This document shows, piece by piece, positions 1-16,095 of a stretch of DNA of 16,150 nucleotides. The DNA lies in UHGV virus genome UHGV-0095173. The stretch is one strand, 5' to 3'. This stretch comes from a virus. A model generated the notes under the pieces. That model had not been told where the DNA came from, did not search any database, and saw only the letters and a list, made by a program, of their open reading frames with translations. Position 1 is the stretch's first letter, and each line of letters opens with the position of its first letter. Both the position numbers and the translations under genes were made by a program.

Positions 1-584
1 TCAGCTATAAAGCTGTTGTGAAGTTCAGCAAGCGTTTCACGCCCGAACGGGGTCAGCTCTCCGCGTTCCGCATCCAGCATGGCGCGGTAGAACACAATGG
101 CGTTCTCTGTTCCCTGCTCAACGCCGTAGCGCTCAATCATTGCGCCCTCGATGTTGTTTGCCATCGCCAACCGTTCAGCAAACGGGTAAATCACCATGCC
201 CGCATTGCCATTGGAGTAAATCGCAACCTGCGATGATGTGCCGTCAGTGTCAGTAACCGTGGTGGTGCCATTCTCGCGCGTCATCTCAGAAACGAACGTC
301 GCAGCAATCAGCCAGCGCCACATGGTTACTTCATGCTGCGCGGTGAAGTCGAACCAGCCACGCTCCCCGCCGTCAGCCACTGCCAAATGCAGGGCAAATC
401 CTTCATCGGTCTTATTGTCATACTCACCCGCATCCAGACGTACTACGACTTTTTCGTAGTTGATAAGAGCAACATGCTCATACATTCCGGCATCATTGCG
501 GGTCATGATATTGACGCCGTGCGGTGTGGCTTCGGCGTGGAACAGGTCGGGATTTCCCGGTTTAATGGTCAGTATATTGCTCAT
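1..584 (-). CDS. hypothetical protein, 5' part only (at least 194 codons; ORF runs past window start)
   Basis: ATG at 584-582 overlaps the stop of the upstream gene (ATGA at 581-584). My reverse-complement translation (MSNILTIKPGNPDLFHAEATPHGVNIMTRNDAGMYEHVALINYEKVVVRLDAGEYDNKTDEGFALHLAVADGG...) has no stop down to position 1. Absent from the ORF track because no stop lies in the window. No family recognised. Confidence 0.5.
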   Translation of the reverse strand, partial: MSNILTIKPGNPDLFHAEATPHGVNIMTRNDAGMYEHVALINYEKVVVRLDAGEYDNKTDEGFALHLAVADGGERGWFDFTAQHEVTMWRWLIAATFVSEMTRENGTTTVTDTDGTSSQVAIYSNGNAGMVIYPFAERLAMANNIEGAMIERYGVEQGTENAIVFYRAMLDAERGELTPFGRETLAELHNSFIA

Positions 585-802
585 GCTTTGCCCTCCCGAT
601 ATTCACGCATTACATGGTCAGCTAGCTTGCTTTCAGCCTCGCTCATTGCTTCGGGCACACCGTGTAACAGCGTCAGAATGGAACCTATAAGGCGTGGTAA
701 ATCGGGATCTGTTTTATTGGTGGTGCTCTCCAGCCACATGGACAAAACAGCCTGTGCCTGTTCAATCTGGCAGGCAGCATCAATCAGTTTTAACTGGCTC
801 AT
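581..802 (-). CDS. hypothetical small protein (73 aa), paralog of the neighbouring 59-aa protein
   Basis: ORF track entry. Start overlaps the stop of the upstream gene (ATGA) and its stop overlaps the next start. Shares a QAQ-VL-MWL core with the 799-978 product. Confidence 0.5.
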   Translation of the reverse strand: MSQLKLIDAACQIEQAQAVLSMWLESTTNKTDPDLPRLIGSILTLLHGVPEAMSEAESKLADHVMREYREGKA

Positions 803-978
803 TTGTCACTCTCCACTGCCAGCGCATCAGCCAGCCCGTCTAAGATTGTCAGCACCGCATCCACCATATCGGGCGCTTCCCCGTCGTCGGTGGTCATGGT
901 GTGAAGCCACATGGTGAGGACGGTCTGCGCCTGTTGGATTCTGCACATTACTTCACTAACGCTTAGTCCCTGTTTCAT
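799..978 (-). CDS. hypothetical small protein (59 aa), paralog of the 581-802 product
   Basis: Not in the ORF track (under 60 aa). Hand translation: MKQGLSVSEVMCRIQQAQTVLTMWLHTMTTDDGEAPDMVDAVLTILDGLADALAVESDK. ATG at 978-976 overlaps the stop at 975-977; stop at 801-799 overlaps the ATG at 802-800. Confidence 0.45.
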   Translation of the reverse strand: MKQGLSVSEVMCRIQQAQTVLTMWLHTMTTDDGEAPDMVDAVLTILDGLADALAVESDK

Positions 979-1172
979 CGCTTCCCCTCCCGTTCTGCCA
1001 ATTCTTCAATCAGCCATGCGGTAACGTCACCGGAAAGGCGCTTTAGCAGAGTGGCGATTGCGGATACTTCGCTATCTGCAAGGCGGTGGGGGAAGTCTTC
1101 AACAAGACGGGCAATTATCTCAGTCTGGTGGGCGCGTTCTGCTGCCTGCTCTAAGGTGATTTCACGGCTCAT
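975..1172 (-). CDS. hypothetical small protein (65 aa)
   Basis: ORF track entry. Preceded by AGGAGGTG embedded in the upstream gene; ATGA overlaps at both ends. Confidence 0.5.
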   Translation of the reverse strand: MSREITLEQAAERAHQTEIIARLVEDFPHRLADSEVSAIATLLKRLSGDVTAWLIEELAEREGKR

Positions 1173-1348
1173 GCTGCCACCTCCTGAATACGAGTAATAC
1201 GAACGTGCTTATAACCGCCTTTATTCGCCAGTAGTTGCGCAGTCGATTTAGCTGTTTCTGGACTGGTGCTAGTCATGGTGTAGTGAATGCCGACGGTGTT
1301 ACCGCGCTTGTTAACAGCGTATCCGTCGATCTGGAAGGTTTTACGCAT
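1169..1348 (-). CDS. hypothetical small protein (59 aa)
   Basis: Not in the ORF track. Hand translation: MRKTFQIDGYAVNKRGNTVGIHYTMTSTSPETAKSTAQLLANKGGYKHVRITRIQEVAA. ATG at 1348-1346 lies just downstream of the recombinase-like stop (1341-1343); its stop overlaps the next start (ATGA). Confidence 0.45.
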   Translation of the reverse strand: MRKTFQIDGYAVNKRGNTVGIHYTMTSTSPETAKSTAQLLANKGGYKHVRITRIQEVAA

Positions 1349-2219
1349 TTCCGACCTCCATTGCTAAACGGGACTGGATAGCTGCCGCTTTACTGCCTAA
1401 TTGCAGGTAAGTACGAGTTATCGCAGGGTTGCTATGACCCAGCATTTCAGAGGCCACTAATAGGCCCTGTTCGCCACCTGCGGACATGAGGTTAAAGGCG
1501 GCTATTTTGCGGCTTGAGTAGGCGCTCAGGCGCAATTTAGCGTTAATGAAACGGGTAAACCACGCCATGACGCCATGAAGTTTGCGCCAGATGGTTTGGC
1601 GAGTAACGCTACCTTCCAGACGTTGACAACGGTTACTTTCGATTTGAGAGCGGGAAAATACCAGGTCGTCCTCCACCAGATTCCGATCCTGACGGTCACG
1701 CAGCCGCTTGATAATGCCGGGGGGTAACTGTTTGGTGTCGTGCTTGACGTCAGCCTTAGCCACCAGCCCGAACACAATCGCCTGTTCTTCGTCGTTCATA
1801 TCGGCGGCCAGTTCATCACAGCCGATACTATCCCACTTCATGTAGGCGATATGGTCAGCGGCGAGCCGCGCGGCGTCCTTGCGCTGCTGGCGCACAATTT
1901 CAATACCTTTGCGGGTTGCCCGCGCTTCTGCGGCTTTGGTCTGTTTGGAAACGATAATTGTCGCCTGTCCAGTTTCCCAATTGATGCAGGAATAGCGCAG
2001 GTTGCAAACGTCGCTGGTACGCCAGCCGGTTACGGTCGCAATATCCCACCAGAGCAACACCCAATCGGGCTGTGTCTGCTGGATGCGCTCGCGTAGCTTG
2101 CGCTGCTCGTCACGGTCATAGACAGGGGTCATGGTGCGACTGCCCTTTGTGCTCGCCGCTTTAACGACATTGCCGCGCAGCTCGCGGGCTTTGGCTGTCA
2201 GAGTCTGGAGGTTAAACAT
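1341..2219 (-). CDS. tyrosine recombinase-fold protein (phage integrase family, catalytic domain, about 292 aa)
   Basis: C-terminal LGHSNPAITRTYL matches the tyrosine-recombinase box II signature (His and catalytic Tyr). Box I-like TGWRTSDVCNLRY. The usual HxxR appears as SSRK. Start placed at ATG 2219 (MFNLQ...) because GGAGGTG sits 4 nt upstream; the track's longer ORF begins at a TTG at 2312. Confidence 0.65.
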   Translation of the reverse strand: MFNLQTLTAKARELRGNVVKAASTKGSRTMTPVYDRDEQRKLRERIQQTQPDWVLLWWDIATVTGWRTSDVCNLRYSCINWETGQATIIVSKQTKAAEARATRKGIEIVRQQRKDAARLAADHIAYMKWDSIGCDELAADMNDEEQAIVFGLVAKADVKHDTKQLPPGIIKRLRDRQDRNLVEDDLVFSRSQIESNRCQRLEGSVTRQTIWRKLHGVMAWFTRFINAKLRLSAYSSRKIAAFNLMSAGGEQGLLVASEMLGHSNPAITRTYLQLGSKAAAIQSRLAMEVGNA

Positions 2220-2400
2220 GACGCACCTCCGGCACTGGCAGACGTGCGGCCAGAGACAAAATAAAGTGCGGCGCAAGGATGCGGCGGGCTTCGCGTTCGG
2301 TCGCAGCCTCAACGGACAGACGGCAAGGTTTGGCTTTTTTATCGTGGCGATTCAGCGCGAGAAAGCGCCAGGTGAATTTTGAGTGTGCGGATCTAGCCAT
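2212..2400 (-). CDS. hypothetical small protein (62 aa), first gene of the operon
   Basis: ORF track entry. AGGAG about 9 nt upstream of ATG 2400. Its stop overlaps the recombinase-like start (ATGTTTAA). Function unknown. Confidence 0.45.
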   Translation of the reverse strand: MARSAHSKFTWRFLALNRHDKKAKPCRLSVEAATEREARRILAPHFILSLAARLPVPEVRHV

Positions 2401-2720
2401 TTTTAGCGGCTCCTAGAACATATTGAAGGAGTCTCGCCAGATGCTGCTAAACATGGGTGGCGAGACGTGACGGGGTTAGCAGACTGGCGTTCTAGGAAAC
2501 CAGCAGGCGTTAAGCCTCCCCACCACGCCCCGCCATAAATCGGGGGTATGGTTGGTTTTCGGGCGTAAAAATACCGCTATACGGAAATCAGCGGCTACCC
2601 GCTAGAACGTTCAGGCTGCTAAACCCGGCACCCGTTTTGTGAGGTGCAAAATAATCATAACCACACTACCCCGTTAAGCGCAAGGGAAATATCCCCTGCG
2701 CCCACAATGCAAACTTGTGA

Positions 2721-3791
2721 TTAGTACCCGCGAGAAGCGTAAACTCGTGCCATGCCAGCCCAATGAGAGAAAAGAATTTCCCACTTAATTGGGTTGTAGG
2801 TAATACTTCCATCGACTGCGGCAGCATTCCATGCCCGATCAGAAATAGAGCTATCTTTAGCAGTTTTCCCCCATTCAACAATATCCCTTGCTAAAGCCTG
2901 TACACATGCTCGACTGACTACCTTTTCGTCAACGTACGCCCCAACATCAGAGCATGACTCCATACTCATGTTCAGGCTATTTTTAAGGGACTCCAGCCCG
3001 GCCACTGACATAAAGCGACGACCATTAGCGTATGCAACACCGTCATTCCTGATAGTGAACTTAACAGTGTGGAATGCGTCAACAATCATCCGCTGCTCTG
3101 GCGTCGGGTTCTGCCATAGCACAAGGTTAATCTCTCTCTCAGAAGCTATTGATTCTGCTTTCTCACGCTTAACTCGTGCATCCCGTTCTGCCTGGTATTG
3201 TTTTTGATTTTCATCATGAGCCTTTTGGTAACTAGAGGCTAATGCGTCTCTGTTTTTGGCAAATGCTGCAATGCTATTTTTGAAATCGCTTCTGCTAACC
3301 TTGTTTAACCCCATACTCCAGCGGTCATTTTCGTAATCATCATAAATGGCATCAACTTTTGCCGGATTACTCAGCACAGTCGCCAGATTAACCGGAATTT
3401 TAGCCATCTCGTCACTGATTCTCGCTACATGTTCGAAAGTCGATATAGAGCCAACTTCATGACTCCCATACTCATGATAAGCGGCATAAAAAATTGGAAT
3501 AGATTGAGGTTTTTCGTTCACTGACTTAATGATGCTTTTTTCATCACATGACTGTTCACCCCATTTGAAAACACTTTTCCCACCATTTTTGTATGTGTTG
3601 CAATCATCAATACCCAAACGAACCAGCGCATCCCATCCGGGCCGTTTCTTGTAATCCTCGCTCTTGACAACATGCATTGTGGTTAGGGCTTTCGCAGGAT
3701 CTAACTTGCCAGCGGTACAAGACACGATAGGAAAGGCCAGAGAAGCGCAGGCTGCTATCCTGAAAAGGCTCGTCAATCTTTCTTTTTTCAT
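2721..3791 (-). CDS. predicted lipoprotein (356 aa), cargo gene of unknown function
   Basis: N-terminus MKKERLTSLFRIAACASLAFPIVSC has a basic n-region, hydrophobic core and lipobox-like IVSC followed by T. Central charged, coiled-coil-like stretch (YQKAHDENQKQYQAERDARVKREKAES). Looks AT-richer than flanking phage genes by eye. No family recognised. Confidence 0.7.
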   Translation of the reverse strand: MKKERLTSLFRIAACASLAFPIVSCTAGKLDPAKALTTMHVVKSEDYKKRPGWDALVRLGIDDCNTYKNGGKSVFKWGEQSCDEKSIIKSVNEKPQSIPIFYAAYHEYGSHEVGSISTFEHVARISDEMAKIPVNLATVLSNPAKVDAIYDDYENDRWSMGLNKVSRSDFKNSIAAFAKNRDALASSYQKAHDENQKQYQAERDARVKREKAESIASEREINLVLWQNPTPEQRMIVDAFHTVKFTIRNDGVAYANGRRFMSVAGLESLKNSLNMSMESCSDVGAYVDEKVVSRACVQALARDIVEWGKTAKDSSISDRAWNAAAVDGSITYNPIKWEILFSHWAGMARVYASRGY

Positions 3792-3843: not shown

Positions 3844-4170
3844 ATGGCAAGTCGATATAAAGGCCGGGTTATTGGCTTCGGTGCCAATATCATTTCTCCG
3901 AAATTTCATAACGCCTGTAATCGCTCGTTTCCCCATCTTGGGGACATTTCAAAACTGCGAATCAAAGTGCGAATGGAACTGCGAATTCGCAAAGAGAGAG
4001 CGCCGCTCAAAGCAGGCCGGATAAGGCTTCGCGGACATATTGCGAATGCGAATCCACCAGAAACGAAACGCGAATCACCCATAAACAAAACCGATACGCA
4101 GGGAGCGTACTGCCCGTATTCAATCGGCCGAAAAGTCAGCCGATTAAAATCATGCCCGGCTATCCCCTGA
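3844..4170 (+). pseudogene. terS-like relic: diverged inverted copy of the 5' part of the prophage small-terminase gene (possibly an intact 108-codon ORF)
   Basis: An 18-mer caccagaaacgaaacgcg at 4055-4072 is identical to the reverse complement of terS 11811-11828. TGCGAAT repeats at 3956-4075 mirror those at 11904-11958. The frame from ATG 3844 gives MASRYKGRVIGFGANIISPKFHNACNRSFPHLGDISKLRIK..., resembling TerS MAKPDWGELQQRFLSEHAKTGISPKEWCEAQGLNYSTAKRYIKIA. The repeat block is read in a different frame from terS and I found no convincing RBS. Confidence 0.3.
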
Positions 4171-4630
4171 AATTTCAGGAGATCGAGAGCCACCAGCAGA
4201 GAACCGTTCATGCCATCGGTAACTTGCAGCCCGAAGCTCAAATCTGAGCGTTGACCGCCAGCCAGAAGAAACCATTTTAAATCCCGCGCCTTCTCTTTGG
4301 ATGAACAGGGTTACTCCCCGTAATGCTGTGAACTGCCACGATGATTCGGGGTTGTGTTGCGCTGGCCTTTGAGTCCCGCACAAACACTGACCCACAAAAT
4401 TTTTGTAGGTGACTGGCCCTCTTGATGAGGTGCTGTTTTGCGTAACCCTTAATGAGTTGTGCAAAGGCTCAACCCTTTAAAAGGGTTGCCTAACCACCGG
4501 CGATAGTAATAACCGCCAACCTATGAACACTATGAACACCTTTGAGCATTTTTCTATAAACATTCCACTACTGCCCTATTTGATGCCTTTCTCTGGCTGG
4601 CCTGTGTAAGTTACCGTTGCTGGGAACTGA

Positions 4631-4668
4631 CAATAAAAAAGGCTTGCCCCTCTCAGGTAACAAGCCTT
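4631..4668 (-). terminator. intrinsic terminator downstream of alpA
   Basis: Minus strand: 8-bp stem AAGGCTTG / CAAGCCTT with a 14-nt loop followed by TTTTTATTG, about 20 nt past the alpA stop. Confidence 0.5.
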
Positions 4669-4685
4669 GTCTATCGCTCTGGATC

Positions 4686-4898
4686 TCACTCACTACAGAT
4701 TCCGCGCTTTTGGCTCTGTCTTCCGATCCACGCCTCCACCTCATCGCGATACCAGCAATTGCGGCCGCCAACTTTGAAGGGCATCGGAAAGCCGTTCCCC
4801 TCATCCTTCAGAAATTCATAGAACGCAGAATCAGAACGGTAGCGTAGACGGGCTTTAACTTCGACTTTGAGCAAAATATCACTGTTAGATATGGACAT
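4686..4898 (-). CDS. alpA: AlpA-family transcriptional regulator / excisionase-like protein (70 aa)
   Basis: GFPMPFKVGGRNCWYRDEVEAWI matches the AlpA signature (FP-P-K-GGR-W-EVE-WI). GAGG RBS 5 nt upstream of ATG 4898. Sits next to a P4-type integrase. Confidence 0.85.
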   Translation of the reverse strand: MSISNSDILLKVEVKARLRYRSDSAFYEFLKDEGNGFPMPFKVGGRNCWYRDEVEAWIGRQSQKRGICSE

Positions 4899-4973: not shown

Positions 4974-4999
4974 TAAAAAAAGCTGGCTTAAAGCCAGCT
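4974..4999 (-). terminator. intrinsic terminator downstream of int
   Basis: Perfect inverted repeat AGCTGGCTT / AAGCCAGCT (4981-4999) followed on the minus strand by a run of 7 T, about 40 nt past the int stop. Confidence 0.6.
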
Positions 5000-5040
5000 A
5001 TACCCGTTTGAAATCATGATTATCCAGAAATGGATGTGCC

Positions 5041-6270
5041 TTACACAACCAGCCTCAAGCCCTTATCGCCGCTGGTCTCCAGTATTTCGCCACACTCTGC
5101 GGCCTCGATAAAGTCCCCCCACCATTGCATTAAAACCCGGCGTTTTTCCAGATAGTCGCTACGGTTATAAACATTTCGAATCGCATCGGCGCTTTTGTGA
5201 GCGAGTGCAGCCTCAATCACATCAGGGTTGAACCCCTCGTCATTTAAAACTGTAGATGCCAACGCCCTGAACCCATGAGGAACAATCAGCCCTTTAAACG
5301 ACGTTTTGTGTATCCCGGCCTGAGTCGCACAGCGTGAGATCGGCTTATTTTCTTTTCGCCATGAGGGGAAAACATAATCGCAGCGCTTCCACTTTTCGGC
5401 CTCTTTAAGCACGTTTATAGCCTGGCTCGATAATGGGACTACGTGGGGGCGCTTTCCTTTCATCCGGCTTGCAGGGATTTGCCAGATTGAGTTATCAAAA
5501 TCAATCTCATTCCAGAGAGCGCCGCCAGCCTCCGAAGGCCGGACCATCGTAATGATCTGGAATAATAATGCCAGCTTTGATGGCTCCCATAAGCTCAACT
5601 CGTTCCATGCGCTTAAAAATTCGGGCAACCGCTCTTTCTGTAAAGTCGCTCTTGGCTCGTTTTTTTCAGCCGGGAATGCTTTACCAATTTTCGATAGCGG
5701 GTTGTGCTCAATAACCCCAATGTTTACCGCATAATCCATTATGGCGTTGATGGTAATAACCATTTTCGTAAGCGTTGATGGCCTTTCCCTGAAAGGTTTA
5801 AAAGCCTGAATAGTATCGGCTGCGTTTATTTTATGTACCGTGGTATGCCTAAAAATCGTGGAAAGATGCTTCAACGTCACATTGTGCGATTCAAGCGTGT
5901 TGCTTCTCGCACCTTCTTTAATCTTGATTTTTAGCCATTCATCGGCAACGGCCTGAAATGACTGCGCGTACATTTTACGCTGTTCATTCCTGGCATCTTT
6001 TTTGACTTCGTTCGGATCTATCCCTCGCGCTACCATACGGCGCAGTTTCGAACGTTCCTCCCTCGCTTCGGACAAAGTAAACTCCGGGTATCGTCCAATA
6101 GTATAGGTTTGTCTCTTCTTCGTTACCGGGTGTACATACCGAAAACGCCATGACTTACCGCCCCGGCTTGTGATGTAAAGCAACAAACCGAAACCATCGT
6201 GCAAACTGAAATCCTTGCCCTGTGCCTTCGCGCTTTTCACTTCGACGCTAGTTAGTGGCCTAACAATCAT
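5041..6270 (-). CDS. int: tyrosine-type site-specific integrase, P4-like (409 aa)
   Basis: N-terminal arm-binding-type domain (GKSWRFRYVHPVTKKRQTYTIGRYPEFTLSEAREE). C-terminal catalytic region with HGFRALAST and downstream Tyr (RNVYNRSDY). GAGG RBS 7 nt upstream of ATG 6270. Confidence 0.95.
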   Translation of the reverse strand: MIVRPLTSVEVKSAKAQGKDFSLHDGFGLLLYITSRGGKSWRFRYVHPVTKKRQTYTIGRYPEFTLSEAREERSKLRRMVARGIDPNEVKKDARNEQRKMYAQSFQAVADEWLKIKIKEGARSNTLESHNVTLKHLSTIFRHTTVHKINAADTIQAFKPFRERPSTLTKMVITINAIMDYAVNIGVIEHNPLSKIGKAFPAEKNEPRATLQKERLPEFLSAWNELSLWEPSKLALLFQIITMVRPSEAGGALWNEIDFDNSIWQIPASRMKGKRPHVVPLSSQAINVLKEAEKWKRCDYVFPSWRKENKPISRCATQAGIHKTSFKGLIVPHGFRALASTVLNDEGFNPDVIEAALAHKSADAIRNVYNRSDYLEKRRVLMQWWGDFIEAAECGEILETSGDKGLRLVV

Positions 6271-6484
6271 TCAACACCTCTCTGGCTACCATGTAATGCA
6301 AACGGCGCATGATTCTCTTTCTAGTCCCTCATGTACCGAATCAAAGCGAAATCCGGCGAATAAATCCGCACATGTTCGGAGTGTCATTTTTATGGTTCAG
6401 GCCAGTAACGCCGTATGATTCCGAACGATAACGCACTGATTAATAGATATTAGTTGCATAAGGTACAGATATGCAGTCATTGGA

Positions 6485-7705
6485 TTATCCTTTGCGGTTA
6501 GACCAGAAGTCGGCGTTTTGTTTGTTCAGGGAAGCGATGCTGGTCATGCCCATATTTGGACGTTGTGCATCGCCCGTGGTGCTGCGGGTGTTTCGCCCTT
6601 TGGCAATCTCTGACACGGCGTTAAACGCCATATCTACCGATTGCTTGGGCAATTTGCGGATATCCGCATCACCGACAACCTGGCGAACCAGTGTTTTGTC
6701 AGCGGCAGCCAGCACATCACGTTTGAACGCGGTCGGTTTCACCTTACGGCTCAGATCGATACCCGGGACGATAACTTCGGCACGATAAGCAGCGTCACCA
6801 GTAATCGTGGTTTCTTCTTCATCGTCCTCGCCGTCACCGGTCGGATTATCGTCAGGATTATTGTCGTTATCGCCCGTCGCAGTTCCTTCGAGCTTAGCCA
6901 GCAGGGCTTTGAGCAAGGTTTTGATATCGTCCTCGCCGTCGCCGGTTGGCTCTCCGCCCATTTCCGGCTTTTTGTCCGGCAATGGTTGCTGCGGTGAAAG
7001 GTTAATGTTGAGGTTAACGCCGCTCGGCAGATCCCCTTCGTCACCCGTTACCGCCGCTGGCGCAGAGTCCAGCAGTTCGTTCATGGTGTCAGCGTCACCC
7101 GTTTTGATGGCCGTGCGCATGCGGGTCCACCAGCTTTTCTTTTGATTTGCCATTGTGTCTCTGTCTCCAATTGCACAACGATTTCCGGCTCTGCCTTTGG
7201 GGACAAGAGCCACATGGTTTCCGGTAATATCGACCTGCTCGGCTTTACCTGGCTCGGTCTGCTCGTACTCCGCGTCATAGCCGCACGACACTTCACGCAG
7301 GCCATCTTCGATAAGCTGAATGGCGTTTTCGTCTTTGACGATAAGGTCAGCCAGCATCAAATCAGACTGATCACCAGTCCCGCGCCGAACGTTCTGAAGA
7401 TGCCCGACCGCAAGCTCTTTCCAGTTCTCGGGGTTGACCAGCCGCACATTCCCGTTTTCATCTTCAGGATGCAGGATCGTGATGCTCATCCCTTCGAATG
7501 AGGCGAGCGTGGCCGGATGGAATACCTGCTCAGGAGAACGCGTGACGACTATTTCACCGAACTTATCGGGTTTCAGTTTTGGCAGGTCATCAGCACCATA
7601 GAGCTGCTTACCCGTTCGACCTATCGGCACGTCTTTGCACAGCAGCGAGCCGTCAGCCAGCTGATAGCGGGTTTCCCCCAGCCGGGTGTAGAAGAAATAT
7701 TTCAT
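6485..7705 (-). CDS. phage head scaffold/protease-like protein (DUF2213-like, 406 aa)
   Basis: Follows portal and head-morphogenesis genes. Motif GNHVALVPKGRAG. Acidic, low-complexity C-terminal half with two PTGDGEDD copies. Start overlaps the upstream stop (ATGA). DUF2213 assignment is from memory. Confidence 0.75.
   Translation of the reverse strand: MKYFFYTRLGETRYQLADGSLLCKDVPIGRTGKQLYGADDLPKLKPDKFGEIVVTRSPEQVFHPATLASFEGMSITILHPEDENGNVRLVNPENWKELAVGHLQNVRRGTGDQSDLMLADLIVKDENAIQLIEDGLREVSCGYDAEYEQTEPGKAEQVDITGNHVALVPKGRAGNRCAIGDRDTMANQKKSWWTRMRTAIKTGDADTMNELLDSAPAAVTGDEGDLPSGVNLNINLSPQQPLPDKKPEMGGEPTGDGEDDIKTLLKALLAKLEGTATGDNDNNPDDNPTGDGEDDEEETTITGDAAYRAEVIVPGIDLSRKVKPTAFKRDVLAAADKTLVRQVVGDADIRKLPKQSVDMAFNAVSEIAKGRNTRSTTGDAQRPNMGMTSIASLNKQNADFWSNRKG
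6806..7051 (-). repeat. in-frame acidic repeat region inside the scaffold-like gene
   Basis: Near-identical 22-bp direct repeats at about 6821-6843 and 6927-6949 (atcgtcctcgccgtc[a/g]ccggt[c/t]gg), encoding PTGDGEDD twice amid a Gly/Asp/Asn-rich stretch. Confidence 0.6.
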
Positions 7706-7902
7706 CCATCCGCCGCCTTAGTGGATTTAATAAACTCACGCAGCAGATGCTTTATCTGACGCGCATTACCACGACCTATAAGTTGGCAGCGCTTTGCTCT
7801 ATCACCAACAGATTGATAAATAGCCTCTACGCCATTGTATTTAGCAGTGATGCGCGTAGCTTCGCTGGCCTGTTCTTTCAGGAAATAGATTGTTTTTTCC
7901 AT
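7702..7902 (-). CDS. hypothetical small protein (66 aa) between head-morphogenesis and scaffold genes
   Basis: ORF track entry. AGGT about 6 nt upstream of ATG 7902. Its stop overlaps the scaffold start (ATGA). Basic C-terminus (KRCQLIGRGNARQIKHLLREFIK). Confidence 0.5.
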   Translation of the reverse strand: MEKTIYFLKEQASEATRITAKYNGVEAIYQSVGDRAKRCQLIGRGNARQIKHLLREFIKSTKAADG

Positions 7903-11450: not shown

Positions 11451-12090
11451 CACGACGAAGGCGATCCGCTTCCAGAGACACTTTGTCAGTGGAGGCGAGC
11501 CGATGCTCTATAGATGCCTTTGTGAATTCCAGCGACTCAATGCGGGCCGTGTTACGGTGCATGGCTTTTTGCGCAGATGAAATTAGCTCGTGAAGATTAT
11601 TGGCGGTATCGCCATCAGCTATTTCAAGCTCAGTCTGCCAGCGGCCAATATTTTCAGCAGCGGTAAGGTTCGCCGCACGCAACCAGAAAAGCTCATCATC
11701 AAGAGTGAGCGCCTGAGCATCCTCGGTAATGGCATCAGATAGAAGCATTCGGCGTCCATAGCCACCATGCTTCAATGCGTTCTGATTTCCGGGTCTGGAA
11801 TTATAATGAGCGCGTTTCGTTTCTGGTGAGTTTGATGGTTTTGCGACTTCGCAGTTATCCACTAAGCCCGCTGGTGGCTTACTCTTTGCCACTTTCTCCT
11901 TTTGCGAATTCGCAGTTTTATTCGCACTTTTCTTTTGCGAATTCGCACTACCATTCGCAATTTTGATATAGCGCTTTGCAGTCGAGTAATTCAGTCCCTG
12001 CGCTTCGCACCATTCTTTGGGGGAAATGCCGGTTTTGGCATGTTCGGACAGGAACCGTTGCTGAAGCTCGCCCCAGTCCGGCTTTGCCAT
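11335..12090 (-). CDS. terminase small subunit (251 aa)
   Basis: N-terminal HTH-like domain; motif RPGNQNALKHGGY typical of Gram-negative phage TerS; immediately upstream of terL. AGAGGAAA RBS. Contains the ANSQK-encoding GCGAATTCGC repeat cluster. Confidence 0.85.
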   Translation of the reverse strand: MAKPDWGELQQRFLSEHAKTGISPKEWCEAQGLNYSTAKRYIKIANGSANSQKKSANKTANSQKEKVAKSKPPAGLVDNCEVAKPSNSPETKRAHYNSRPGNQNALKHGGYGRRMLLSDAITEDAQALTLDDELFWLRAANLTAAENIGRWQTELEIADGDTANNLHELISSAQKAMHRNTARIESLEFTKASIEHRLASTDKVSLEADRLRRDAGVDDGNGDRDLNDFYSDIQTDPESGSKELLDDTGSK

Positions 12091-15471: not shown

Positions 15472-16095
15472 TTAACGTGTGACCGCATTCAAAATGTTGT
15501 CTGCGATTGACTCTTCTTTGTGGCATTGCACCACCAGAGCGTCATACAGCGGCTTAACAGTGCGTGACCAGGTGGGTTGGGTAAGGTTTGGGATTAGCAT
15601 CGTCACAGCGCGATATGCGGCGCTTGCTGGCATCCTTGAATAGCCGACACCTTTGCATCTTCCGCACTCTTTCTCAACAACTCTCCCCCACTGCTCTGTT
15701 TTGGCTATATCAACCGCACGGCCTGTACCGTGGCAATCTCTGCATCTTGCACCCGGCGTCGCGGCACTACGGCAATAATCCGCATAAGCGAATGTTGCGA
15801 GCACTTGCAGTACCTTTGCCTTAGTATTTCCTTCGAGCTTTGCCACACCACGGTATTTCCCCGATACCTTGTGTGCAAATTGCATCAGATAGTTGATAGC
15901 CTTTTGTTTGTCGTTCTGGCTGAGTTCATGCTTACCGCAGAATGCAGCCATTCCGAATCCGGCTTGTGATTGCGCCATCCCCATAGCAGCCATCACATCA
16001 GTACCGGAAAGAGAGTCAGAAGCCGTAGCCCGTGGTGAGTCGCTCATCATCGGGCTTTTTGGCGAATGAAATTTAGCTACGCTTTCGAGTCTCAT
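15472..16095 (-). CDS. Q: late-gene antitermination protein Q (lambda-type, 207 aa)
   Basis: Sequence MRLESVAKFHSPKSP... with zinc-binding CRDCHGTG...CGRCKGVG appears essentially identical to lambda Q from memory. GGAGAAGG RBS. Confidence 0.95.
   Translation of the reverse strand: MRLESVAKFHSPKSPMMSDSPRATASDSLSGTDVMAAMGMAQSQAGFGMAAFCGKHELSQNDKQKAINYLMQFAHKVSGKYRGVAKLEGNTKAKVLQVLATFAYADYCRSAATPGARCRDCHGTGRAVDIAKTEQWGRVVEKECGRCKGVGYSRMPASAAYRAVTMLIPNLTQPTWSRTVKPLYDALVVQCHKEESIADNILNAVTR

Follow-up and report, generated by a model that had tools for sequence, protein, structure and literature searches.

The DNA analyzed here is a stretch of 16,150 nucleotides from the virus genome UHGV-0095173 (referred to below as the window), in which the head genes of a prophage abut the P4-type integrase gene (int) of an integrative element at positions 6271 to 6484. 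Every gene in the window lies on the minus strand. From high to low coordinates, the prophage genes encode a Q antiterminator, holin, lysozyme, and Rz proteins, a KilA-N protein, a TerS-like protein, a large terminase subunit (TerL) of the Terminase_3 family, a portal protein (Phage_portal_3/DUF1073), a Mu F-like head protein, and a DUF2213 scaffold protein. The scaffold gene is the last intact late gene ahead of the insertion, and exactly 214 bp separate its stop codon from the integrase open reading frame (ORF). A first-pass annotation had noted this spacing and the shared strand, both of which are borne out by the ORF coordinates, and had proposed that an integrative element was inserted into, or recombined with, the prophage and left it defective.

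Directly past the scaffold stop codon, the sequence AAGGA-N-ATG (ATG at 6480-6478) opens a 27-codon ORF (MTAYLYLMQLISINQCVIVRNHTALLA). The first-pass annotation had read this ORF correctly and had taken it for the possible stub of the displaced capsid gene. It is the stub of a displaced head gene, but the gene is that of the cement protein gp24 and not that of the major capsid protein. The product of intact gp24, which belongs to the Pfam family Phage_cement/XM1_gp53, begins MTAYLYRMPVGIAG; in the window, the start of gp24 is retained, and the stub reads on into element DNA and ends near 6400.

The site was compared with its counterparts in other genomes by megablast, with window positions 5900-6900 as the query and 5,426 complete Escherichia coli genomes as the database. 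The scaffold gene was present in 338 genomes. In 334 of them, the match stops at window positions 6456-6462 and is followed by a gene annotated as "structural cement protein Gp24" or by an unnamed equivalent, while four genomes, ABWA45, ET791, EC2001, and ECONIH5, match across the junction (loci L001, L003, L004, and L005, respectively). The BLAST search for the breakpoint that the first-pass annotation had suggested thus places the boundary at 6456-6462, at the edge of the crossover core described below. Isolated phages of 33 to 43 kb, namely, Salmonella phage SEN34, Citrobacter phage Omnitron, and several vB_EcoM phages, match the scaffold side only, and in the uninterrupted loci, including those of SEN34 and Omnitron, gp24 begins 4 bp past the scaffold gene. 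These data bear on the possibility that the arrangement is native, with the integrase being the prophage's own and lying within the late operon by design. The co-directionality of int with the late genes and the recurrence of the adjacency in several genomes would agree with such a design. However, scaffold-int adjacency is absent from the 334 genomes and from SEN34 and Omnitron, where the scaffold gene is followed by gp24, the ABWA45 prophage has a separate integrase gene at its far end, beyond the recombination genes, and the element carries a primase and an immunity RNA of its own. A native arrangement therefore has virtually no chance of being the correct explanation.

In all four complete carrier genomes, the element is directly followed by gp24 lacking seven codons and then by a DUF2184 major capsid gene (Pfam Major_capside; E value, 7e-82), beyond which lie head completion, sheath (DUF3383), tube, tape-measure/transglycosylase, and baseplate genes. 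In these genomes, the virion genes that the first-pass annotation had found missing thus lie beyond the element. The four prophages differ in their early regions and terminase types, and yet their junctions are the same. In the ET791 prophage, a DnaB-like helicase gene is split (L003 28183-30609) and the KilA-N gene has an internal stop codon (L003 22318-22815). The junction is the product of insertion, not deletion, and the virion genes have been displaced rather than lost. The proposal of a defective prophage, in which the capsid and tail genes were lost by recombination or deletion and the packaging and head module came to adjoin an unrelated integrase island, drew on the lack of any capsid or tail gene after the scaffold gene within the 16-kb window and would accommodate the pseudogenes of one carrier. 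Since four complete genomes have gp24, the major capsid gene, and the tail genes immediately beyond the element, and since the two junctions have only a 7-bp core in common and their outer halves rebuild the intact locus, this proposal is highly improbable and that part of the first-pass annotation does not stand.

The crossover core, CTGTACC, falls in codons 5 to 7 of gp24, and everything below position 6462 belongs to the element. The attB site is GCATAT-CTGTACC-GGATGC, with flanks GCAT/ATGC, and the reconstructed attP site is TTGCATTC-CTGTACC-TTATGCAA, with inverted TTGCAT/ATGCAA flanks. By analogy with the lambda Int paradigm, this layout is that expected for the core-type binding sites of a tyrosine recombinase. 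The intact locus reads ...GGATAATCCA-ATGACTGCATAT-CTGTACC-GGATGCCTGTTGGC..., the scaffold-side junction reads ...ATGACTGCATAT-CTGTACC-TTATGCAACTAATATC..., and the far junction reads ...AGCCTTGCATTC-CTGTACC-GGATGCCTGTTGGC...; the outer halves of the two junctions, when joined, give back the intact locus base for base. The insertion is therefore a precise reciprocal event around the 7-bp core, and excision would give back an unaltered gp24. L001, L003, L004, L005, and a further locus, L007, have junctions identical to the base. The sequences that identify each state are GCATATCTGTACCTTATGCAAC for attL, TTGCATTCCTGTACCGGATGCC for attR, TTGCATTCCTGTACCTTATGCAAC for attP, and GCATATCTGTACCGGATGCC for the restored attB. 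No long direct repeats that could serve as att sites were found at the two junctions. A 9-bp inverted pair, AATAAATCC/GGATTTATT, is present in the att arms.

The insertion costs gp24 its ribosome-binding site and its first seven codons, and the element supplies no replacement sequence. The attR site reads ...TTGCATTC-CTGTACC-GGATGCC, and there is neither an in-frame start codon nor a Shine-Dalgarno sequence upstream. RefSeq calls the gp24 gene past the element from Met8, with a length of 483 bp compared with 504 bp for the intact gene. A tRNA or transfer-messenger RNA (tmRNA) gene as the integration target of the P4-type integrase was ruled out, since none was found in the window with ARAGORN or Rfam, in agreement with the first-pass annotation, which had seen no tRNA-like sequence.

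The same attL was found in Apirhabdus apintestini and in metagenomic data. In IMG/VR, at least 120 contigs contain the exact attB 26-mer, compared with 8 containing attL. The 90%-identity protein cluster to which the window integrase belongs (99% identity) contains 106 sequences, and in nine of ten sampled distinct assembly contexts of this cluster the integrase lies 214 bp past the scaffold gene with the same attL. The tenth context (L084, GCA_014330225.1) is an off-target chromosomal copy with the pseudo-core GCATACC in place of CTGTACC. This copy adjoins a LysR-family gene, which it follows, and its junction, located about 190 bp upstream of int, reads ATGCATACC|TTATGCAAC. Because the same junction recurs in E. 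coli, Apirhabdus, IMG/VR contigs, and the sampled assembly contexts, it is not a chance feature, and since both occupied and empty sites exist, the insertion is polymorphic. The attP junction was detected at the end of the contig IMGVR_UViG_3300045988_113726 (L096 and L102), 12.47 kb from attL, and also in a separate metagenome contig, OGVK01015064.1 (L225).

Taken together, the junction is very probably the attL site of a phage-inducible chromosomal island (PICI)-like satellite of about 12.2 kb, which was inserted by its own tyrosine integrase into gp24 of a helper prophage. The integrative element proposed by the first-pass annotation is upheld by the insertion, the 7-bp core, and the empty sites, although its type, a helper-embedded satellite, had not been recognized. 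The helper is a lambdoid-regulated prophage whose head module comprises Terminase_3, a DUF1073 portal, a Mu F protein, a DUF2213 scaffold, the cement protein, and a DUF2184 capsid. The features of the window are listed in Table 1.

Table 1. Features of the helper prophage and the embedded element in the window
Feature	Position	Strand	Basis
Q antiterminator gene, helper	15472-16095	-	Pfam Antiterm, E 1e-57
Promoter-like site TTGACT-17-TAAATT, just 3' of the Q gene	15429-15401	-	Consensus match only
terS-like gene, helper, 251 aa	11335-12090	-	ORF
Six GCGAAT/ATTCGC hexamers inside the helper terS-like gene	11904-11958		Hexamer count
Scaffold gene (DUF2213/Pa193_gp24 family), helper	6485-7705	-	Pfam PF09979, E 4e-42
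Retained 5' end of gp24, codons 1-6 (MTAYLY)	6462-6480	-	Translations; alignment of interrupted and intact loci
7-bp crossover core CTGTACC, attL copy	6462-6468	-	Sole sequence common to attL, attR, and the empty site
Integrase-proximal attachment arm (P' arm), core to int start codon	6271-6461	-	Element specific, identical across carriers
GGACTA motif, +135 from core, candidate arm-type or regulatory site	6322-6327	-	Conserved upstream of int
Tyrosine integrase, 409 aa, P4/CP4-57-type architecture	5041-6270	-	Pfam Arm-DNA-bind_3, Phage_int_M, Phage_integrase (E 1e-23, 1e-8, 1e-22)
Intrinsic-terminator-like hairpin and T run, just after int	4981-4999	-	8-bp stem, 5 GC pairs, TTTTTTT; conserved in ABWA45
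AlpA/excisionase-like protein, 70 aa	4686-4898	-	84% identical to WP_044702604.1 ("AlpA family transcriptional regulator," RefSeq)
Seven GCGAAT/ATTCGC hexamers, satellite cluster	3957-4075		Hexamer count
Cargo protein, 356 aa, lipoprotein-like N terminus	2721-3791	-	ORF; conserved in most carriers
C4-type antisense (immunity) RNA	2453-2540	-	Rfam RF01695, 75 bits vs gathering score 45, E 2e-13
Icd-like small protein, directly downstream of the C4 RNA	2212-2400	-	NCBIfam phage_ICD_like, E 1e-22; PHROG 1743
Second, divergent tyrosine-recombinase-like protein, ~292 aa	1341-2219	-	Partial Pfam Phage_integrase, E 5e-11; PHROG 216
Small satellite ORFs leading to the primase	1-1348	-	Collinear with ABWA45 L001 14494-15731

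The element is 12,223 bp long in ABWA45 and 12.1 to 13.7 kb long across the four complete genomes, and it extends about 5.8 kb beyond position 1 of the window. Its integrase, whose translation shows the HGFR...LAH...VY motifs, is 38% identical to IntA, 31% identical to P4 Int, and 21% identical to the integrase of Eco567.11capE (11capE; L006), a previously described satellite discussed below. The first-pass annotation had called int followed by alpA; the P4-type integrase is supported by Pfam, but the alpA call is weak, since the 70-aa protein has no Pfam match at an E value of <0.001 and matches the 11capE AlpA (E value, 3e-5) and Gifsy-1 Xis (E value, 4e-4) only weakly. The region between the AlpA-like gene and the gene for the 356-aa protein (4132-4696) is a variable spot, of which about 277 bp is absent from ABWA45; relatives carry in it an HVO_A0114 gene on the opposite strand, sometimes paired with a TumE toxin-antitoxin-like gene. 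The 356-aa cargo protein gave no match in Pfam, PHROG, or NCBIfam. The C4 RNA and the Icd-like ORF form an arrangement like P1 c4-icd and P4 CI ahead of the satellite replication genes. The length of about 292 aa for the second recombinase-like protein is counted from the RefSeq start (the mechanical ORF extends to 2312), and a counterpart of 290 to 295 aa occurs in 7 of 11 related lineages. The primase of ABWA45, which lies outside the window (L001 11327-14107), is a 926-aa protein with Zn-ribbon, TOPRIM, and DUF927 domains (PHROG DNA primase; E value, 3e-184).

Beyond the primase, the copies of the element differ. ABWA45 has a few small genes, and no virion or lysis genes were annotated or detected in its element. 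The copies in ET791, EC2001, and ECONIH5 carry a DUF2280 small-terminase-like gene next to attR (L003 4656-5129, L004 4539-5012, and L005 3047-3520, respectively), and the DUF2280 gene of ECONIH5 shares 74% DNA identity with its helper's own terS. The "late zone" of the EC2001 copy (L004 5253-8330) contains captured baseplate, plug, and spike genes, and an IS5 lies inside the ECONIH5 satellite. On the helper side, a 66-aa ORF without a family match lies between the Mu F and scaffold genes (7702-7902), in a segment of about 190 bp that is missing from ABWA45, ET791, EC2001, ECONIH5, and Apirhabdus and present in GCA_012994665.1 (L080); this segment looks like a moron-type insertion in the head operon.

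The features of the window that may relate to packaging are GCGAAT/ATTCGC hexamers, of which 13 out of 22 in the window lie in two clusters. One cluster is inside the helper terS-like gene and is presumed to mark the helper pac region. The other lies in the satellite, is kept in L001, L003, L004, L005, and L007, and could be a mimic of the helper pac or TerS-binding site. The first-pass annotation had credited the element with a terS-like sequence, which corresponds to this hexamer cluster mirroring the one within the helper terS gene. The array is the only candidate packaging feature of the ABWA45/window type. No shared DNA between helper and satellite comparable with the 258-bp cos segment of 11capE was found in the window, ABWA45, or ET791, in which only hexamer array matches of 30 to 38 bp were detected.

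Satellites embedded in their helpers have been known since 2023, when helper-embedded PICIs (HE-PICIs) were described as satellites lying inside lambdoid helper prophages and co-oriented with the late genes (Tommasini, Mageeney & Williams 2023, PMC10111431). The founder, 11capE, resides in E. coli NRG857c. HE-PICIs disrupt the target late gene without a replacement sequence in attP, and helper late transcription running into the satellite has been proposed for them; after mitomycin C treatment of the founder, excision of the composite is followed by replication and then by satellite excision (PMC10111431). The family was defined by a TBLASTN score of at least 400 bits to the 11capE integrase (PMC10111431). 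The insertion sites, 14 (or 15) of which were mapped, lie in cognates of lambda late genes; those enumerated in the portions of that source available are A:Terminase_1, B:Phage_portal_2, C:CLP_protease, E:Phage_cap_E, L, T, and V (PMC10111431).

Like HE-PICIs, the element described here has its int, AlpA-like gene, and primase co-oriented with the helper late operon (all annotated genes of the ABWA45 element are on the late-gene strand), disrupts a late gene without a replacement sequence in attP, follows the zone order of integration, immunity RNA/Icd, replication, and late, and has off-target chromosomal copies. Both attP sites also contain a motif repeated at about -70/-81 and +132/+135 from the core, though the motifs are unrelated. 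Unlike HE-PICIs, its integrase is only 21% identical to that of 11capE, with a score of 68.6 bits against the 400-bit threshold, and nine integrase relatives score 51 to 90 bits. The published doubled motif TGTATTGC (tgTGTATTGCantgTGTATTGCa) at -81/+132 of the HE-PICI attP is likewise lacking: a search for the exact pattern, with no mismatches allowed, detected it in none of the five element loci L001 to L005 and found it in 11capE (L006 1169-1188) at the expected +132 position. The target, a Phage_cement/gp24 gene entered near its start within a DUF1073-portal/Mu F/DUF2213 head module, is also absent from the sites enumerated above. In the available portions of PMC10111431 and its supplements, cement, DUF2213, Major_capside, and GpA_ATPase have no entry, and six 12- to 14-mers of attL and the accessions ABWA45 and ECONIH5 gave no relevant match. 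The single string match in the portions of the supplements available is an unrelated fis PICI. The later literature found on helper-embedded satellites and on regulated gene integrity all leads back to the same paper. As far as can be judged from sequence, the element behaves as HE-PICIs do in every respect and yet falls outside the family by its integrase, its motif, and its site. Its integrase is of another lineage, its target gene is new, and the head module that it enters is of another type.

The element also shares traits with other mobile elements. In size (about 10 to 15 kb for Gram-negative PICIs), in the position of int at one end, and in the primase module, it is similar to Gram-negative PICIs, of which EcCICFT073 is an example (Fillol-Salom et al. 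2018, PMC6092414), and like them it has no virion genes; the neighbor of int may correspond to their AlpA gene, and some copies have putative packaging-related genes. However, Gram-negative PICIs occupy chromosomal sites and interact with their helpers in trans only, whereas this element lies inside its helper. With satellite P4 it has in common the domain architecture of the integrase (31% identity), a C4/CI-type immunity RNA, and a TOPRIM primase-helicase, but the C-terminal part of its primase contains DUF927 and not D5_N/Pox_D5, and P4 targets a tRNA-Leu gene instead of a phage gene. Homologs of Psu, Sid, Delta, and Epsilon were not found among the element ORFs scanned against Pfam, PHROGs, and NCBIfam, with some small ORFs outside the scan. 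The closest relatives of the window integrase with chromosomal sites are CP4-57 IntA and other integrases that target the ssrA (tmRNA) gene (38% to 41% identity). IntA-type integrases insert at the 3' end of ssrA and regenerate it, while the window integrase targets a protein-coding phage gene without regeneration. Excision that restores an interrupted gene at a set time is also known from active lysogeny and regulated gene integrity, as for phi10403S in Listeria comK and the Bacillus subtilis skin element in sigK. Unlike in those systems, the gene interrupted here is part of another mobile element, the helper phage, and it is presumably the satellite that profits from the switch.

To place the integrase, GTDB species-representative genomes were scanned, and relatives of intermediate identity were found only through a large protein database. 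In all, roughly 2,600 integrase homologs with E values of at most 1e-30 were detected. In the GTDB scan, the Apirhabdus integrase was 99% identical, and all others were at most 41% identical and adjoined tRNA or tmRNA genes, with relatives at 30% to 41% identity lying about 150 to 500 bp after such genes. Eleven more distant integrase clusters with 41% to 63% identity to the window integrase were then compared. Each of the twelve lineages sampled, that of the window included, lies within a head, packaging, or tail module of a prophage and has the orientation of that module, and in each of the eleven relatives a truncated or terminal late gene is found immediately upstream. Their hosts belong to Escherichia, Salmonella, Enterobacter, Raoultella, Citrobacter, Pantoea, and Yersinia, and the helpers represent several head module types. 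The related integrases lie after a baseplate sheath-initiator gene (Enterobacter), inside a DUF2184 major capsid gene (Raoultella and others), in a lambda-type FII/Z-region gene (E. coli), in a lambda-type gpA terminase gene (E. coli and Salmonella), after Terminase_2 terS genes (Citrobacter and Salmonella), at the 3' end of Phage_portal_2 (Yersinia), after Phage_portal_3 (Pantoea), after a DUF4055 portal/Mu F/DUF6651 set (E. coli), and inside Phage_cap_E (Yersinia ruckeri). The insertion of the FII/Z-region type is polymorphic as well: 3 out of 79 matching E. coli genomes carry the junction, and most of the others match the phage side only, up to the same breakpoint.

Two of these relatives merit separate mention. 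In Yersinia ruckeri (L229 and L230; int at 5001-6248 and 1620-2867, respectively), an integrase from the same clade as that of the window (44% identity) lies within a lambda-type capsid E gene, which is also the target of 11capE; the Yersinia and 11capE integrases are unrelated, and their apparent positions in the gene differ. In E. coli AREA_492, a match (H102; NZ_CP123335.1 2836130-2836803) with 95.7% DNA identity to the integrase side of the L068 junction (P0037 type; the attL arm and about 500 bp from the start of int) adjoins a terminase large-subunit gene, pointing to a recombinant integrase or to a change of insertion site among close relatives.

A neighbor-joining tree was built with ten of the twelve integrases. 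The ten form a single clade, with the ssrA-targeting integrases of the IntA (CP4-57) group as its sister; P4 Int and the integrases of tRNA sites lie further out, and 11capE Int is the most distant. The candidate arm-type or regulatory motif GGACTA is located 21 to 57 nt upstream of the int ATG in 10 out of 10 sequences, that is, the window and nine relatives (L064, L065, L068, L071, L073, L075, L077, L089, and L091), and is doubled with a 12-nt spacing in three of them. A co-oriented copy is present at -70 from the core in the other arm (the distal arm of L001, outside the window), while no copy occurs within 260 nt ahead of the 11capE int. On balance, these integrases probably constitute a second, independently evolved clade with a tropism for prophage late genes, sister to IntA/CP4-57 and 21% to 26% identical to the published HE-PICI integrases. 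No description of such a second group was found in the literature searched. If the claim is true, helper embedding is a convergent, selected strategy and not a quirk of one integrase lineage.

The distribution of these integrases also helps to judge whether the element might be a generic integrative island (cargo, defense, or mobilizable) without a satellite lifestyle, for which the prophage would be a passive landing pad or would be crippled by the insertion. Such an island could account for a cargo protein without a family match, for the toxin-antitoxin-like pairs of relatives, and for the one off-target chromosomal copy, and the helper dependence of a satellite is a prediction. However, the gene order is that of Gram-negative PICIs (int, AlpA-like gene, immunity RNA/Icd, primase, and late zone), sister copies carry DUF2280 small-terminase homologs, one of them has baseplate and spike genes, and the element amounts to about 29% of a helper genome of about 42 kb. 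The co-orientation of 12 out of 12 integrase lineages within late modules is hard to explain without a positional benefit. A generic island is thus unlikely.

For the helper-embedded satellite, the following mode of action is proposed. With the satellite in place, gp24 would not be made normally, and the capsid and tail genes would lie 12 kb further from the late promoter. Upon helper induction, terminator-resistant, Q-modified late transcription would start downstream of Q, presumably at the promoter-like site listed in Table 1, and run through the scaffold gene into int. No terminator was detected between the scaffold stop codon and int, and a simple scan found no sigma-70-like promoter upstream of int (6271-6461). 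The hairpin after int is the only convincing terminator on the late-gene strand within the whole satellite. The late transcripts would pass this hairpin, the AlpA-like gene, and the C4 RNA immunity region and reach the replication genes, so that the satellite would be switched on in cis at late times. Q-modified RNA polymerase is terminator resistant, and the C4-type RNAs of P4 and P1 confer termination-based immunity; it is from these two properties that we infer induction in cis. Int and the AlpA-like protein would then excise the satellite at CTGTACC and restore gp24 exactly, after which the satellite would replicate by means of its primase and be packaged by helper proteins, perhaps aided by the pac-like hexamer array or, in sister elements, by the DUF2280 small-terminase homolog. 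At about 29% above the size of the related phage genomes (about 42 kb), the composite would be expected to exceed the capacity of a headful-packaging capsid, so that helper production would depend on satellite excision.

Several points weigh against this account. Excision, replication, packaging, and helper dependence of the element are predictions from sequence, and late read-through is deduced from consensus scans and the known behavior of lambdoid Q proteins. The assignment of the 70-aa protein as AlpA-like falls below family thresholds. The satellite hexamer cluster is present even where the helper terS has no matching cluster (L004 and L005), and no packaging gene was found in the ABWA45-type copy. 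The contigs containing attP agree with a circular satellite but could equally reflect tandem copies or assembly wrap-around. Finally, the pseudogenes of the ET791 helper indicate that some helper-satellite composites may be decaying.

Helper-embedded satellites, which so far comprised one integrase clade in lambda-type late genes, are extended here to another integrase lineage, another target, and another type of virion module. Such insertions make intact prophages seem "defective" or chimeric to annotation tools, conceal satellites from satellite finders, and inflate estimates of prophage size. The exact att sequences permit a direct assay of excision by PCR or read counts. For the satellite, the position would couple induction in cis to that of the helper, allow passive replication, and put a reversible brake on the assembly of helper heads. 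The second lineage suggests that parking in the helper late operon arose more than once, and such convergence would argue that the position itself is favored by selection.

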